Shown here piece after piece: positions 191 to 43,799 of a stretch of DNA of 43,926 nt (position 1 is its first letter; every line of letters starts with the position of its first letter). Made by a program: the position numbers and the translations under genes. The notes beneath the pieces were generated by a model. It saw only the letters and a list, made by a program, of their open reading frames with translations. It did not search any database and was not told the DNA's origin. The stretch spans positions 1 through 43,926 of IMG/VR virus record IMGVR_UViG_3300036975_000075. One strand, given 5' to 3'. Source of the stretch: a virus. Its lineage: Duplodnaviria; Caudoviricetes.

Positions 191-223
191 TTATTGAGTT
201 TTAAGTTCATAATTTTTAGTTCA

Positions 224-392
224 AAGACCTGCGGGCAGGATTGGCCTTACCCGCTACCTGCTTGATACGCTTTTATCTGTCGGCTGGTCATCGACCCCGA
301 TTGAACCCTAACGTGTTACTGCCGAAACAGAACATCCAAGTCCGCCATATCACAATGGTATGATGCGTTTCACACACGCCGCCGCAGGTCTT
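224..392 (-). ncRNA. Candidate tRNA-like structured RNA, copy 1
   Basis: 11-bp closing stem AAGACCTGCGG/CCGCAGGTCTT, D-like arm GCGT..ACGC, T-like arm GCAGG..AATCCTGC; ends shared with 38781-38892. Confidence 0.6.
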
Positions 393-524
393 AACTTTTT
401 AAATAATGCCATCGCCCCTACTCCAGCCCTCGGGACAATGACTTTCTACCGTTAATTCGGTTACATCGCCGTTTATGTACTGGACGCGACCATCGTTTTA
501 GCATTTACAATGCTGCGAGCTCAA

Positions 525-599
525 TAGCAGGGGCGGGATTCGAACCCGCGTCAAACGGCTTATGAGACCGTGCTGGTGCCAACTCCAGTCCACCCTGCA
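525..599 (-). tRNA. tRNA-Met (CAT), initiator-like
   Basis: TGCAGGG/CCCTGCT acceptor stem with 1:72 mismatch, CTGG/CCAG D stem, ACGGT-CTCATAA-GCCGT anticodon arm, GCGGG-TTCGAAT-CCCGC T arm; no encoded CCA. Confidence 0.92.
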
Positions 600-604
600 A
601 TAAA

Positions 605-21891: not shown

Positions 21892-21996
21892 TCTCCTTAC
21901 ATTTGATTTTTACTCCGTTCCGAGTAAGGAGAGTTCCGAGAAAAATATTCGGGCAGGCGGCTCGGTCCGCTTTTCGGGGGCTACCCTATCCCGAAT
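21892..21996 (-). promoter_or_regulatory. Structured capsid leader with anti-SD stem
   Basis: TCTCCTTAC (21924-21932) pairs with the capsid SD GTAAGGAGA (21892-21900); upstream ATTCGGG/CCCGAAT multi-stem. Confidence 0.6.
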
Positions 21997-26699: not shown

Positions 26700-28721
26700 T
26701 TAATATTTAGTTCTTATTGTTCGCTGGCCGACTGCCCGGCCTTCTGATTGTTTTTCCAGTTTCTTTTGGTTTCTGATTTGCATTACGTAATCCACATCAG
26801 CCAGGTGAAATACACCGGCTAATTCGGCCGCAAGGTCGCAGTAAACATTGGCGTCCCATAGATGGTTCTCGCGAAAGCCCGGCTTCTTTTCCCAGGTCAC
26901 TACCTCTCGGCCGCTCCTTGCCCGCTTGACGAACTGGGCCTCCGATGCTAATTGCCGCATAAACGATTCCGGCAGATCGTTCGGCAGGTGCATATACCCG
27001 GGGCCGGGCGATTTTTCCTTATCGAACAGTACCTGCCAGAGCCGGTCCTTGCCCATATCGACGTTAATATCAAATCGTTTCAATGCCTTACCCACTACCG
27101 GCCGGACCTTATAAAGCGAAGTTCGCATCCTGTCCCTACCGTAGCCCATCACAGGGATAACGGTATCGGGCGGAAATCTCAGGCAGAAATCATAAACGAC
27201 CGTCGATTCCTCGTCCCTTCCCTCGGCCCTTTGGTACCGGCAGTCCACCGCGACCCGCGAAGCGAAAATTTTTATCGTCGTATCGATATCGAAAATCCAT
27301 TCGCTTCGAACGAAGCTCTCGACAATATCCCAGTTCTCCGGCTTTCCCGTATGGCCGGTCTCTATCCGCCCGGCGAACAAAAGCCACTGCTGGTTTCGAT
27401 AACCGTAACCCTTTGTCACTACCCAGACATGATCGGACTGGACATCGATACCGTGACAGATTATCTGCACTTTGCCCGGTACCATGCGGTCCCGCATCGA
27501 GAAATCGCTGATATGTCTTTTTAATTCCTCGAGCGAAGTCGCCCGCTCCCTTTGCTCCCAGGCCCGGGCGTTCTGATTGTTCCAGAAATTTCGCAGCGGC
27601 AGAATATTTCCCGCCTTGCGATTCCTGTCGGCGATTGCCCATTCGGCGGCAAGGGTATCTACCGTCGTGAACATCGGATCGACCAGTACGGCCGGTATTC
27701 TTATCGCCTTGTGAGTGGACTCCTCATAATCACCTACGATCTCCCCGTTCTTATCTATCGAAGCACCTTGCGGGCACGCCCGGCATCCGGATATCGCCGC
27801 CTTGCGCTCGAGCTCCGACCATTTCGAGTTGCAGCTCGGGCAGACATACCAGGCATGGCGCTTGCGGCCGTGGCCGCGTTTATAATCGGCGGGCTTGAGA
27901 AAGCTGCCGTCTTTGTCTTTTTCGAGCTTGACGTTTTCGAACATTGCCTCGTGATAAACCCCGCAGTCCGGGCAGGGGATATGTATTGACCACTTCTGGC
28001 AGGATTCGAAGTTAATATCGGCCAGGTCGTTTTTATTTTTTGGCGAAGTCACGTAAAACTGCTTGCTTATCTGTTCGTATGTCCTTGTACGGTTGCCCAG
28101 CAGGCTTATCGCATCGGTATCGTCCTTAACTTCCTGCGGCCACAGTGCCACCTCATCGCCGGCCACGTACCGTGATGGATCGTCCGAAAGGGTAATCGGG
28201 CTTGTAGGCCAGGCTAAAACAATCTGCATATTATCCAGATCCGTCGGCTCACCTATAAGAAGATTTCGGATATCACCGCCTAAATGCCGCAATATTCGAG
28301 GGCTGTTCTCAAACGCAGGCTTGAGCCGCTTGATTCTCTTTTTGATAACCTTCTCATCGGGAAGAACCACCTTCATCGGCCCCGGGTCGATATCGATACA
28401 GTAACCCATCCAGCCGCCCAGGATAACGCTCTTGCCCGTCTGCGTGGCGGCATAGACCCAGATAACCCGTGTAGTGAGATCGCACAGCCATTCGATTACT
28501 ACCCGCCAGTAAGGCGTTATCGACAGAGACCACGGCCCCTTTATTCGCGATGATTTGGAAGGCAGAACATAATACTGCTGCATCCAGTCCAGCATGTGCT
28601 GTTTTTTTCGGGGCGCGAGAATCTCCAGCTCCTCCTCGAATAACGGCAGGGGCCGATATCTCAAAAGCAGTTCTGAGTTTTGAGTTTTGAGTTCTAAGTT
28701 TTGTTCAGTTGATGTTATCAT
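26700..28721 (-). CDS. terL: Terminase large subunit (lambda gpA family)
   Basis: ATQTGKS Walker A, GDEV Walker B, PCPDCG, GIDVQ and NHLWDANVY motifs. Confidence 0.96.
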   Translation of the reverse strand: MITSTEQNLELKTQNSELLLRYRPLPLFEEELEILAPRKKQHMLDWMQQYYVLPSKSSRIKGPWSLSITPYWRVVIEWLCDLTTRVIWVYAATQTGKSVILGGWMGYCIDIDPGPMKVVLPDEKVIKKRIKRLKPAFENSPRILRHLGGDIRNLLIGEPTDLDNMQIVLAWPTSPITLSDDPSRYVAGDEVALWPQEVKDDTDAISLLGNRTRTYEQISKQFYVTSPKNKNDLADINFESCQKWSIHIPCPDCGVYHEAMFENVKLEKDKDGSFLKPADYKRGHGRKRHAWYVCPSCNSKWSELERKAAISGCRACPQGASIDKNGEIVGDYEESTHKAIRIPAVLVDPMFTTVDTLAAEWAIADRNRKAGNILPLRNFWNNQNARAWEQRERATSLEELKRHISDFSMRDRMVPGKVQIICHGIDVQSDHVWVVTKGYGYRNQQWLLFAGRIETGHTGKPENWDIVESFVRSEWIFDIDTTIKIFASRVAVDCRYQRAEGRDEESTVVYDFCLRFPPDTVIPVMGYGRDRMRTSLYKVRPVVGKALKRFDINVDMGKDRLWQVLFDKEKSPGPGYMHLPNDLPESFMRQLASEAQFVKRARSGREVVTWEKKPGFRENHLWDANVYCDLAAELAGVFHLADVDYVMQIRNQKKLEKQSEGRAVGQRTIRTKY

Positions 28722-29427: not shown

Positions 29428-30441
29428 CAAAATCTCATCCAGCTCTTGAAGTTTTTTCGTCGCTTCGGATGTTAATTTCAATGCCGCCGGCACATGCTGC
29501 AGTTTGGCGGTGACATCGTCCCTGAACTCCTCTAATCGCGAAACTATTTCCTCGCGGCTCTGGCCGAATACACGATTAGCCAGGTCCGTAATATTATTAA
29601 AGGCATTGACTATATTCTGCAGGATTGCGCATCGCCAGGCGATGACGGAACCCCGCTCTATGAGCTCGCCGCGGTCCTGCTCTAATTTCAGGCGTTCTCT
29701 TTCGGTCTTAACACTCTGGAAGGGATTGAGGGGACTTATCGCCGAATTGCCTCGAACCGCTTTTTTTAGGGTAAAGTCCTCGAACCAGGATATCGCCGAA
29801 TGCAGATCGAAAGTACCGTCTACATTGACCGGCAGCCCTTTTTGCGTCCGCCATTCGTAGATTGTCTGTCTTGCTACACCGAACAATTCGGTCATCTGGT
29901 TAATATTGACTCTGTCGAAGGACTGTCCCGAAACCGCACTCTCGCCCTTGCGGTCCCTAAACCACGTATCCATCATCTGGATAGCCTTTGTATTTCCTTC
30001 GCCGGCCGTTCTTCTTAGTGATTCGCGGTTTTCGATAGTTGCATTGGTATCGGCTGTGTCCCATAGCTCGCACGCCTCCGAATCCTTATCGAGGAAATCA
30101 CGCAAATCCTGGCCCGTTTTGAACTGCACGAACCCGATATTTTTCAATTGCCTGGCGGCATCTGTCACCGTTGCAACCGGTGCCAGCTCTACCAGTTTCT
30201 TCAGCAGCCTGCCGCGGTCGTATGCGGCTCTCAATTTCGGGTGTCTGGTTAGATATTTCGATAGGTTCGGCCCGATACCCGAATTGATATCCGCCTCAGC
30301 TATATCGCCGTATTGATAACCCAGCCGCTGGCACTCGGCCAAAGTCAGTCTCCCGCTCCTTCGCCGCGGTGGCTTATTTTTGCCTTTTGACTTTTTACTT
30401 TTAACTTTTTTAGCTGTCATTCGTGACTGCTTTCCGCTCAA
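29347..30441 (-). CDS. terS: Terminase small subunit (Nu1-like) with long N-terminal extension
   Basis: VNINQMTELFGVARQTIYEW..GLP..FDLHSAISW wHTH; ERERLKLEQDRGELI. Confidence 0.82.
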   Translation of the reverse strand: MSGKQSRMTAKKVKSKKSKGKNKPPRRRSGRLTLAECQRLGYQYGDIAEADINSGIGPNLSKYLTRHPKLRAAYDRGRLLKKLVELAPVATVTDAARQLKNIGFVQFKTGQDLRDFLDKDSEACELWDTADTNATIENRESLRRTAGEGNTKAIQMMDTWFRDRKGESAVSGQSFDRVNINQMTELFGVARQTIYEWRTQKGLPVNVDGTFDLHSAISWFEDFTLKKAVRGNSAISPLNPFQSVKTERERLKLEQDRGELIERGSVIAWRCAILQNIVNAFNNITDLANRVFGQSREEIVSRLEEFRDDVTAKLQHVPAALKLTSEATKKLQELDEILKPQKTSVAASVQEAMPDREIRSQKSE

Positions 30442-30475
30442 TCACCGCAGGGGCTTTCAAATCTTAAATCTCAAA

Positions 30476-30790: not shown

Positions 30791-30859
30791 TTTCAAATCC
30801 TTAAATCTCAAATCATTCTGTCTTCTGACTTCTGCCTTCTGATTTCTGTTTTTATAATG

Positions 30860-31069
30860 TCACTTCCTGTACCATTGAATCCCTTTTTTAGCCAGTTCCA
30901 AGTATAATTTACTGATCAGCCTGGCCCGTACCGCGGCCTTGAATTTCGCCTCTCGCAGTTCCGTCTGGATCTTTCGAAGCTCACTGCCCTTGACCAGGCA
31001 ATATCCGAACGGCATCTCGATCCCGATAGTTTTTAATTTTGATTTTTTAGTTTTCATTAATAATTCCAT
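30860..31069 (-). CDS. Hypothetical protein
   Basis: 69 aa, abuts the methyltransferase gene. Confidence 0.6.
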   Translation of the reverse strand: MELLMKTKKSKLKTIGIEMPFGYCLVKGSELRKIQTELREAKFKAAVRARLISKLYLELAKKGIQWYRK

Positions 31070-33358: not shown

Positions 33359-34162
33359 TTAATCCCGCTCGGTTTTCGCCGATGTTTTTAATGATTCTAA
33401 AAATTCAATATTTATATCAAGATATTTTGGTATCTTAATTCTTAAATTTTTCTCCAGATAAAATCGAAGTGATTCTTTTTGATAGAATTTTTCCCCTTTC
33501 AGCCAGTATGCGATTACGCTAATACAATCCGTGACCTTTGATTTTTTCTCTCTCTCTTTTTCTCTGGCATTATAAGTCTTAATCCAATCCCTCATTAAGG
33601 CATATCGTGTCCTGTGATCCCGGCGAATTGCAATATTTGCTATCAAGTCGATTGTGTCGCCGGGGTTTTGTGGATGTATTGTTGTATATATAAATTTACT
33701 CCTTCTTAAGGCGGGTCGTGTCACTCTTAATAATTTTTGACAATCCTTATCCATCTCAAGACCTAACCATCCGAAAGGCGGCTCCTCAATTATTCCTTTC
33801 GGATAAGCCAGATAGCATAAATGGGCCGGAAAAATATAGCCTGAAAACTTACGTTCCAGGTCTTTTTTAAAGTCCTGCCTGGTGACTTTCACTTCGACTA
33901 TTGCTGTTAAAGGACTGCTAAAACGATACATAAAATCGTTGTATTCAATTTTTGCATCGCCTAAAATATTTTTATAACCTGTGAGTTTTAATTTTTTTGT
34001 CTCAGTCATAGTCGGATAAACAAAAGAGGCCAGATCCGCTACCCATCCCGGATAAACACTTACTTCTGTCTCAATCGGTTTAAACCCTCTGGCATCCAGA
34101 TAAGCAGAGGCAATCGCCGTAGCTCTATGTGTTTTCGGTGTTTTGTTTTTATCCAAACTCAT
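33359..34162 (-). CDS. PD-(D/E)XK nuclease-like protein (MmcB-like)
   Basis: ETEV..VADL..IVEVKVTRQDFKKD..YLAYP. Confidence 0.68.
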   Translation of the reverse strand: MSLDKNKTPKTHRATAIASAYLDARGFKPIETEVSVYPGWVADLASFVYPTMTETKKLKLTGYKNILGDAKIEYNDFMYRFSSPLTAIVEVKVTRQDFKKDLERKFSGYIFPAHLCYLAYPKGIIEEPPFGWLGLEMDKDCQKLLRVTRPALRRSKFIYTTIHPQNPGDTIDLIANIAIRRDHRTRYALMRDWIKTYNAREKEREKKSKVTDCISVIAYWLKGEKFYQKESLRFYLEKNLRIKIPKYLDINIEFLESLKTSAKTERD

Positions 34163-34204
34163 CTGCCTTCTGACTTCTGCCTTCTGATTTCTGTATTCTG
34201 TTTT

Positions 34205-34236
34205 TTATAAGAGCCCCGCCCTACGCCGGGCGGGGC
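34205..34236 (-). promoter_or_regulatory. GC hairpin plus boxA-like GCTCTTATAA
   Basis: GCCCCGCCC/GGGCGGGGC stem whose 3' end runs into GCTCTTATAA. Confidence 0.45.
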
Positions 34237-38680: not shown

Positions 38681-38780
38681 TTCATCCTCAAAACAAGGGC
38701 GGCCTTAAAATGTACTAAGCAGGTTAAAGAATTCTTGGTTAATAATTTATTCTTTTTCGCGACCGCCCTTAACGACTTCA

Positions 38781-38892
38781 AAGACCTGCTTAATATCCTT
38801 TAGCTAATTCCGGTTGACTGATTCCGTTAGCATCAGATAGGTTATATCAGTTCGATAACCTCGTGCAGCTCACTCACGCCGCCACAGGTCTT
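38781..38892 (-). ncRNA. Candidate structured RNA, copy 2
   Basis: AAGACCTGTGGCGGCGTG...GCAGGTCTT ends shared with 224-392; internal hairpins. Confidence 0.55.
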
Positions 38893-41045: not shown

Positions 41046-41347
41046 TTATCCCGCTCCAAAGCCGCGGGGGCTTTTCTGTTTTTTAATTTATGTTCTGAAT
41101 TTAATTGCTTGAGAAAATCCGCTATGTCAAGATGACATGATGAATTAAAAATCGTATTGGGTTCACCAAAAGAACAGTATTGTCTCCAGCGTGAATACCA
41201 TTTAATTGTCGCTAATAAATAATAACTGCGATTATTTCGACACAACCATACCTGAGTTTTTTTGTTTTGAGGAGTAACATCTTCAAAATGAATATATTTA
41301 TATTTTGTTTTCATTAGTCCGTTTTTTCCCTTCCACAGAACATACAA
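41042..41347 (-). CDS. Hypothetical phage protein
   Basis: KTQVW..LATIKWYSRWRQY pattern; likely start MKTKYK. Confidence 0.7.
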   Translation of the reverse strand: MYVLWKGKNGLMKTKYKYIHFEDVTPQNKKTQVWLCRNNRSYYLLATIKWYSRWRQYCSFGEPNTIFNSSCHLDIADFLKQLNSEHKLKNRKAPAALERDK

Positions 41348-42725: not shown

Positions 42726-43094
42726 TTATTTTGGCGTCATATAATTCCTTTCATTAAATCTGCTCTCTGCCATCTGACTTCTGACTTCTGACCTCTGTTC
42801 TCTGAACGTCGCCGCGGCCGACTGGCTGCAGAATACCCGCTCGTATTTGGCTATAGTCTCCGGCCCGATTCGGCCATCGACCTTAATGGGATTTTTCGGC
42901 TCGATGCGATTAAGCCGTCTTTGCAGCTCAGCCGGGCCCGGTATCTGGTTGAGGCAGCTTTGAATCTCCATATCGAGCATATCGAGTTTCTGCTCAAGCT
43001 GGGCCGACCATTTATACTGCTCGACAATGCATTGGTCATATGCAACTAAAATTAAAACAACACCTATATAAAAAAAAGTCTTTGCAATTTTCAT
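42726..43094 (-). CDS. Membrane-anchored peptidoglycan-binding-domain protein
   Basis: N-terminal TM; ELQRRLN..IKVDGRIGPET. Confidence 0.7.
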   Translation of the reverse strand: MKIAKTFFYIGVVLILVAYDQCIVEQYKWSAQLEQKLDMLDMEIQSCLNQIPGPAELQRRLNRIEPKNPIKVDGRIGPETIAKYERVFCSQSAAATFREQRSEVRSQMAESRFNERNYMTPK

Positions 43095-43380: not shown

Positions 43381-43405
43381 TCTTCCGCTCCAAAGCCGCG
43401 GGGGC

Positions 43406-43615
43406 TTATGGCAAATATTTAATCTCTTGCCCGTTCTGTTTATGAAAAAAATCCCAAATTAAATGACCGAAATTAAAGGCCTCGTTTGCCAAAGCTATCT
43501 TGGGAATAGTCCTGAAATGGCAGGCCTGGGTAATCATATAAAGTGTCATTAAATCCGATTCGGTCAGTCCTTCTATTGTCACCGTCTCGTCGGATTGCTG
43601 TTTTATACTAATCAT
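43406..43615 (-). CDS. Hypothetical protein
   Basis: Likely start MISIKQQ. Confidence 0.6.
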   Translation of the reverse strand: MISIKQQSDETVTIEGLTESDLMTLYMITQACHFRTIPKIALANEAFNFGHLIWDFFHKQNGQEIKYLP

Positions 43616-43799
43616 AATCTCTCTCTCAAAAAAGCGGCGGTGCATCCGTGCAACCCCGTACGGCGGGGCGTAACAAAGAAGAAAGCTACTATTGTTTAAG
43701 GTCCCTATCCATGACCGACTTTCCGCCGCCTGCCTTAAGGCAGATAAGCTACCCGCTCAAACGCCGCGGGGGCTTACTCTTCATCAATATCAAAAACTT

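Follow-up and report, generated by a model that had tools for sequence, protein, structure and literature searches.

The minus-strand element at positions 392-224 of the window, by which we mean the whole 43,926-nucleotide stretch of DNA analysed here, is one of a family of RNA genes that are shaped like tRNAs but have no anticodon arm. The family comprises at least 99 distinct members in 93 insert clusters (the window element, 35 viral sequences, 59 metagenomic sequences and 4 from genome contigs), which combine a common, covarying frame with a helix resembling a variable arm and, optionally, a hairpin within the T loop. An earlier note on this DNA had seen in the element a tRNA mimic whose anticodon arm is replaced by a large insert, and this description now extends to 99 members in which the acceptor and T stems covary. 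The RNA family is real and is apparently undescribed, although a candidate model of PMC10690425 may overlap with it.

Homologues and covariation of the frame

Two pattern scans provided non-circular tests of the frame. Scanning D arm first, with the letters common to both copies in the window and four positions left free, returned 41 viral loci, 21 of which have the letters of the first copy at the free positions. All 20 loci that parsed, with a T arm and an acceptor complement, were among these 21, and none of the other 20 parsed; one of the 20 that parsed is the window's own phage, and the twenty-first (L014) has a bulged acceptor. Scanning T arm first returned 15 loci, 13 of them with a D arm upstream and the remaining two due to chance; the 13 include one self-match and five variant D arms, two of which have a 5-bp stem around a GUGYGAA loop. 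The parser fired on 2 of 1860 shuffled tails, and counts are given as obtained, with L027 mis-parsed, L225 and L290 lost, and L014 and L066 missed.

A pattern that included the closing stem was set aside, as it returned 11 loci of which one was identical to the window and ten were chance matches. Many viral loci (L072-L177), from a large group of related contigs, show these 16 letters outside any tRNA context and close to a start codon region, and they were also treated as chance pattern matches. Three matches to the covariance model (L335, L336 and L337, from G003, G057 and G045) have the D loops CUAUGAA, GUGGGAA and GUAUAA; because these are variant loops, some of the family escapes the pattern scans. 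The family is also larger than 99, since the metagenome scan covered 119 of about 430 estimated matches. Rfam matched no member and no insert in the 80 member-bearing loci scanned.

We aligned 44 members with MAFFT and built a covariance model from these 44, with the window excluded. The model scores the window element at 60.8 bits (E = 1.4e-11). The earlier note had proposed a covariance model and a search for homologues, and covarying homologues do exist. In the alignment, 98.4% of cells pair, a figure partly built in by a parser that selects for pairing, compared with 35-43% in slid controls, and both-sided changes were found in 116 cells, compared with 29 in shuffles. Two-sided changes fall in 6 of the 7 acceptor pairs and 3 of the 5 T-stem pairs; the D stem is invariant in the alignment, its support being limited to the two extended (5-bp) variants.

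In the frame, whose minimal core is 62-68 nt, an acceptor stem of 7 bp stacks on a T stem of 5 bp, and the acceptor stem is often longer. G7-C66 (91/92), C8-G9 (89/93, partly fixed by the search patterns) and A48 (92/93) are nearly universal, the D arm GCGU-GUGUGAA-ACGC is near-invariant, and the T stem is mostly GCAGG/CCUGC. In 64 clusters the T loop is 7 nt long (U54, U or A55, a free position 56, R57, A58, U60), and the others read UAGC-stem-AAU with loop lengths of 17 to 63 nt; about 30% of the family has such a hairpin within the T loop. A compensatory change occurs in the inserted stem of L224, and a helix placed between positions 57 and 58 presumably fits interrupted T-loop motifs. The elbow is non-canonical: position 56 is A in 43, C in 11, U in 6 and G in 4 of the 64, the D loop GUGYGAA has no G18-G19, and the C/G56 association is weak (p = 0.03, on 2 of 5).

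Position 73 is random (T in 30, C in 23, A in 21 and G in 18), and NCCA is encoded in 0 of 92 members; CCA is encoded in 0 of 27 tRNA genes of one host examined. The Nitrosomonas member L186 has an 8-bp stem followed by ACCA, and the tRNAs in the rRNA spacer of that genome do encode CCA. The closing-stem extension averages 3.4 bp in the family versus 0.7 bp in host tRNAs, and is at least 3 bp long in 54 of 92 members versus 2 of 27 host tRNAs.

The window element, its genome and its second copy

With its 127-nt terminal repeat, the window represents a phage genome that is circular, complete and 43.8 kb long; terminase, portal, capsid and long-tail genes are among its contents. The element sits inside a non-coding cluster (740-220) together with a gene for tRNA-Met(CAT) 131 nt upstream, which agrees with its earlier placement about 130 nt downstream of a true tRNA. 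Small genes lie upstream of the cluster, along with two sigma-70-like consensus matches that are not above chance, and an ORF starts 34 nt past the element's closing stem. The first pair of the tRNA-Met is mismatched and its D arm is unusual, and the tRNA is flanked by long inverted repeats and hairpins (600-740 and 400-523, minus strand); in a blastn search of GenBank phages, it alone was matched among the 20 of 97 records listed. Elsewhere in the genome, a 23-nt GC-rich intergenic motif occurs five times, directly after stop codons or between genes (30353-30375, 30434-30456, 41051-41073, 43385-43407 and 43753-43775), tandem 7-nt repeats of several kinds occupy intergenic sites (768-842, 28663-28716, 30817-30861, 34162-34220 and 42766-42810), and an int-alpA RNA is matched by Rfam (39.3 bits) at 21935-21996 on the minus strand, between two head-region genes.

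Table 1. Coordinates of the window element, its parts and associated features.
Feature	Position	Strand	Basis or remark
Closing stem, 5' strand	382..392	-	Sequence; family covariation; 388-382 are acceptor positions 1-7
Leader extension of closing stem, 4 bp	392-389	-	Sequence
RNase P site (+1), predicted	388	-	
C8-G9 linker	380..381	-	CG in 89/93 clusters, partly fixed by search patterns
D arm GCGU-GUGUGAA-ACGC with position 26	364..379	-	Loop without GG; position 26 is A364
Insert, 102 nt, replacing anticodon arm and variable loop	262..363	-	A48 at 262
T arm, 17-nt loop, stacked on closing stem	235..261	-	Stem 261-257/239-235
T loop: UAGC, inserted mini-hairpin (252-243), AAU		-	Same insertion type in 29/98 correctly parsed members
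Closing stem, 3' strand	224..234	-	Sequence; 234-228 acceptor, 227-224 extension; CCA not encoded
boxA-like GGTCTTTGAAC, downstream, overlapping closing stem	219..229	-	Not a family feature (6/91)
boxA-like A/U-rich motif, upstream, family-typical	391..403	-	Enrichment 35/93 versus 0.9 in shuffles
tRNA-Met(CAT)	524..600	-	ARAGORN; Rfam 35.8 bits; same non-coding cluster
Second copy	38781..38892	-	9-bp closing stem, altered D arm/loop, unrelated insert, T arm absent

Read from the minus strand, the element has the 11-bp closing stem (392-382/234-224), CG linker (381-380) and D-like arm (379-365) attributed to it before, and the T-like arm with an enlarged loop (261-235) does stack on the closing stem. 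It has U3-A70 and, as had been pointed out, no tmRNA ends, neither ARAGORN nor Rfam finding a tmRNA. ARAGORN called no tRNA at the element (low-stringency ARAGORN yielded noise), and the Rfam check proposed earlier gave no match to a known family at gathering or loose thresholds. Constraining the fold to the frame costs nearly nothing (-58.7 kcal/mol versus a free minimum of -59.0 kcal/mol). By itself the window sequence folds modestly better than chance (z = -2.2; 5/200 shuffles), with a D-stem probability of 0.19 and a T-stem probability of 0.48 when unconstrained; the proof of its structure comes from the family evidence, not from the single sequence.

The insert of the window element has four predicted hairpins, the last of which stops 2 nt short of the T arm. 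The four hairpins named in the earlier note fared unequally in the constrained ensemble: GATA/TATC (pair probability 0.8-0.9), TGTT/AACA (0.4-0.6) and CCAT/ATGG (0.4) stood, but GTCG/CGAC did not (0.0), its place being taken by GGTC/GACC (0.95). We rejected a long variable-arm stem (352-346/269-263), which has a probability of 0.04 under the enforced frame, and an alternative hairpin in which the T-loop insert would pair with the 3' strand of the acceptor, which is possible in just 6 of 29 members.

The window had also been credited with two copies of the element; the second (38892-38781) is not a full copy, and the covariance model finds no match there. It has 26 of the 28 5' letters and the same 3' end as the first copy, and its flanks match L311, a full-length member with a T arm. 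We read its missing T arm as a probable deletion between two GCAGG repeats. The reverse order, with the T arm a late insertion and the second copy ancestral, was rejected, as homologues carry the T arm. A contig from an RNA run (X1), which may stem from the same site as the window, spans 38704-38888, including the deletion junction, with zero differences, so X1 contains the junction as well; no X1 contig lies over the first copy. Contigs of this run end at 390, 2 nt before the predicted +1 of the first copy, and at 38888, the predicted +1 of the second, end positions that were not counted as evidence because X1 contigs show neither RNA ends nor level. We found no relatives of the gene preceding the second copy, and other T-arm-less or degenerate copies occur at L219 and L158.

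Inserts, flanks and distribution

Insert length ranges from 13 to 223 nt (median 76; 93 clusters), with inserts of just 13, 19 and 24 nt in three members. An anticodon arm at the normal place (5-bp stem, 7-nt loop, U33) was found in 0 of 93 clusters, and in 58 of 93 a helix with a score of at least 5 extends to within 1-2 nt of the T arm, compared with 27 in controls (maximum 38); most of these helices begin 7-27 nt past the D arm. A more fitting description of the insert is a stub, or reduced anticodon region, followed by an overgrown variable arm. Folding of the inserts is barely above that of shuffles (mean z = -0.6; 28/90 above 0), and neither GNRA (23 versus 21) nor UNCG hairpins (13 versus 8, maximum 14) were clearly enriched in them. 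In one subfamily of three members, both partners differ in 8 of 22 predicted pairs, and in two further trios the loops are common and the stems changed (by eye). Inserts are free between lineages, with structure and some loops kept inside small subfamilies, and the family has two independent cargo sites, the variable arm and the T loop, where inserts have loops of up to 63 nt. The inserts of L036, L217 and L277 have the junction motifs AACUGA(C/A)GCGUGAAAG and CAA(U/C)AAAC between covarying helices; Rfam gave no match for these motifs, and the junction module could be an aptamer or ribozyme.

A boxA-like motif lies at most 45 nt upstream of 35 of 93 members, compared with 0 of 27 host tRNAs and 1 of 11 phage-locus tRNAs, the pattern being drawn from the family's own flanks with a shuffle expectation of 0.9. 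Its spacing from the element varies from 2 to 29 nt, and the boxA label rests on its resemblance to a motif after tRNA-Ala in the Nitrosomonas rRNA spacer; an rRNA spacer for this comparison was found in 1 of 5 genomes. The boxA-like motif said to follow the element is present in the window, where GGTCTTTGAA overlaps the 3' end of the element, but this position is not typical of the family, in which the motif is downstream in just 6 of 91 members. By eye, the tRNA-Pro on a phage-like contig of G001 also has a boxA-like motif. In the window, hairpins directly followed by boxA-like motifs occur at 2585, 739, 229, 38786 and 34214 on the minus strand, a series whose recurrence suggests possible phage-wide Nus-factor antitermination.

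Members are intergenic among early genes, next to genes for replication, recombination and small proteins of no known kind. No neighbour gene is shared; the largest cluster, an integrase, adjoins 4 of 92 loci (tyrosine integrase genes beside L057, L133, L231 and L261), and an attP site was rejected on this count. An ARAGORN tRNA lies within 1 kb of 10 of the 52 members with long flanks. In a single case, an abiF RNA (Rfam, 41.8 bits; L026:952-988) is directly upstream of a family member. Some family members adjoin further anticodon-poor tRNA-like RNAs, which are arrayed in tandem and differ in their D and T loops (L057:614-1128, with about four tRNA-like RNAs in 650 nt; L033; L220; L290:1313-1431; L226:675-787; L029:854-979; L302:151-272; L217:867-970; L022:1110-1267). 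These neighbouring RNAs have other D loops, two of them Leu-type, and the arrays look like a wider superfamily.

The four genome matches are labelled Nitrosomonas marina (cultured), Sedimentisphaerales, Pirellulales and Planctomycetota; three of the four contigs, those listed or scanned in detail, look phage-like by their ORFs, and stray viral contigs may be present in genome bins. Within the class of G001 the model matched 3 of 151 genomes, and within the family of G002 it matched 1 of 101, with 25-37 candidates per genome scored under stricter filters. A core host chromosomal gene was not found as such in the two host groups searched, and the distribution is that of a mobile element.

Related RNAs and possible functions

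The family shares with class II tRNA-Leu (RF00005) the 7/5 acceptor-T branch, G7-C66, a helix at the variable-arm position and the letters G9-G10-C11-G12...A22-C23-G24-C25. All four tRNA-Leu genes read from G001 have G7 and U8-G9-G10-C11-G12...A22-C23-G24-C25, a pattern not seen in that genome's three Ser and one Tyr tRNA genes. The D arm of the family differs from tRNA-Leu at 8, 13-15 and 48, with C8, G14, U15 and A48 in place of U8, A14, A15 and U48, so that A15-U48 becomes U15-A48. Unlike tRNA-Leu, the family has no anticodon arm and no D-loop GG, leaves position 56 and the discriminator free, may carry a hairpin in the T loop, and is missed by ARAGORN and RF00005. The shared letters point to probable descent from a class II tRNA-Leu frame.

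tmRNA, whose alanine identity consists of G3-U70 and A73, likewise has tRNA-like ends and a large domain replacing the anticodon arm. In contrast, the family has a paired D stem, no fixed discriminator and inserts down to 13 nt, and lacks the alanine identity, G3-U70 occurring in just 7 of 92; an ATG-to-stop ORF of 8 or more codons is present in just 24 of 93 inserts, which gives no support to a tag ORF. Engineered tRNA scaffolds are tRNA frames bearing foreign RNA between the D and T arms, whereas this family occurs in nature, has a D arm peculiar to it and offers a further cargo site within the T loop. Phage antisense RNAs of the C4 or CI type have loops complementary to a nearby phage transcript. 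Such a role was rejected: complements of at least 10 nt to a member's own flanks occur in just 1 of 48 (8% with foreign flanks; no excess), the window insert has no 10-nt complement in the window's whole genome, and Rfam gave no match.

T4 species 1 RNA (rnaC, NC_000866 70908-71046; L330 here) is also stable and likewise lies in a phage tRNA cluster; its T arm, too, stacks on a closing stem, and it contains long internal hairpins. However, it has no family D arm, has a canonical T loop and gave no match with model R1. YrlA (RF02553), a Y RNA of bacteria and phages, is also a tRNA mimic as presented in an excerpt of PMC4201824: it has both a D and a T arm, its stems hardly vary and it does not decode; its arms are permuted (T, acceptor, D), whereas the family has the standard order, and the window element has neither the Ro60-binding GNCGAA motif nor an Rfam match. 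YrlA is also marked by a Ro60 gene at a distance of at most 4 kb; no TROVE (Ro60) domain was found with Pfam in the 28 window proteins or in the 106 longest-listed of 416 neighbour ORFs, most flanks being shorter than 4 kb. The same excerpt gives the 7-bp acceptor as a major RNase P determinant, reports that M. smegmatis YrlA is cut and receives CCA, and remarks on the unexplained invariance of the YrlA stems (PMC4201824). The allo-tRNAs and irregular polycistrons in the excerpted text of PMC5389517 also form arrays of irregular tRNA-like genes with a long V arm, some probably not used in translation, but theirs are 8/4 or 9/3 with an anticodon, whereas the family is 7/5 and anticodon-less. 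We found the family's motif letters neither in the literature texts searched nor in the six supplementary files of PMC10690425 that were compared; titles and abstract openings on phage tRNA-like RNAs held no description of the family.

Our preferred reading, which we hold tentatively as somewhat short of probable, is that the anticodon-less frame serves as a host-processed, nuclease-resistant chassis that carries variable hairpin cargo for host RNA-binding proteins. The RNA would be transcribed inside the phage non-coding cluster, aided by boxA antitermination, cut by RNase P at +1, then trimmed at its 3' end and possibly given CCA. It would not decode on the ribosome, since it has neither an anticodon arm nor a canonical elbow. 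The cargo would bind or decoy proteins such as defence toxins or sensors, diversifying from phage to phage. The parts kept by selection, the acceptor/T helix and the D arm, are those read by processing enzymes; escape of a phage from ToxIN through RNA mimicry has been described (PMC3475682, in excerpt). We favour the chassis because the frame is kept while inserts are variable yet structured within subfamilies, and because there is a second loading site. The arrangement of members in tandem with tRNA-like RNAs having different D loops also speaks for it, and the earlier idea of a scaffold with cargo fits the modular inserts. Against the chassis, no cargo target emerged from Rfam, flank antisense or neighbour genes, insert folding is weak, some members are nearly empty (13-24 nt), the second copy in the window has no T arm, and the non-canonical elbow and extended closing stem may hinder tRNA-type processing.

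The near-empty members and the weak folding of inserts would also suit a frame that acts alone, as an uncharged tRNA-body decoy titrating a host enzyme or defence protein that reads the D arm and acceptor/T helix, with the inserts as tolerated filler that stays folded. The D arm and T stem are near-invariant beyond the needs of pairing, as are the stems of YrlA (PMC4201824, excerpt). We nevertheless consider this unlikely, given that subfamily inserts preserve loops and compensatory stems, that the elbow varies freely, even to the point of hairpins within the T loop, and that a D arm unlike that of host tRNA-Leu at 8, 13-15 and 48 makes a poor copy of the host tRNAs seen. Less likely still is a cis signal in the phage early transcript, in which boxA and the tRNA-like fold would serve antitermination, or RNase P/Z cutting or protection of a polycistronic mRNA. 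Such a signal would account for the upstream boxA-like motif and its scarcity beside host and phage-locus tRNAs, the extended leader-trailer pairing, the intergenic position among early genes and the ORF close behind the window stem, and the D-arm GUGUG resembles E. coli boxC (UCUGUGUGGG; PMC10250234, in excerpt). However, the motif's pattern derives from the same flanks and its spacing is variable, the same upstream motif occurs on related RNAs whose D loops lack GUGUG, and tandem arrays and 223-nt inserts are more than a cutting signal needs.

The earlier suggestion of a decoy against anticodon nucleases, or a carrier of displaced anticodon loops, has become very improbable. L195, L226 and L299 (446-599) do present a hairpin loop, ACUGAAAA, on changing stems that resembles a displaced tRNA-Phe anticodon loop, and CUGAAA occurs in 9 of 93 inserts versus 2.9 in shuffles (maximum 9). 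Anticodon nucleases, however, recognise anticodon-loop sequence (PMC10264068, excerpted text); no member has an anticodon arm in place, and 7-nt anticodon-type hairpins elsewhere in the inserts are not enriched (2 members versus 4.0 in shuffles). We give scarcely any credence to the insert being an intron, the splicing of which would yield a working tRNA: the insert does lie between the D and T arms, and L080 adjoins an RtcB ligase gene (2-901), but insert ends have no common anticodon-stem halves, lengths run from the shortest to the longest inserts above, Rfam scans found no intron family, the D loop has no GG and the discriminator is random. Functionless, decayed tRNA-Leu genes seem equally far-fetched. 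Decay would explain the Leu-like frame, the neighbours that keep a Leu-type D arm and the T-arm-less or degenerate copies, yet it sits poorly with the pairing and compensatory changes in the alignment and with departures from tRNA-Leu that are fixed across 93 clusters.

Phage tRNA-like RNAs lacking a known job date back to T4 species 1 RNA, and the present family is a variant among known phage tRNA mimics, with a function that we propose by inference. If the chassis reading is true, the family would be a natural equivalent of the engineered tRNA scaffold, and the non-coding arrays of small phages would be an overlooked gene class. The wider picture, that phages of several bacterial phyla use one anticodon-less frame, marked by its D arm and with two loading sites (variable arm and T loop), for the maturation and display of interchangeable RNA effectors, with the arrays forming a counter-defence arsenal, strikes us as rather unlikely. 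The family offers about 100 variants from nature that share one frame with two cargo sites and go unseen by ARAGORN and Rfam, so that swaps of frame and cargo could test what phage tRNA mimics do.
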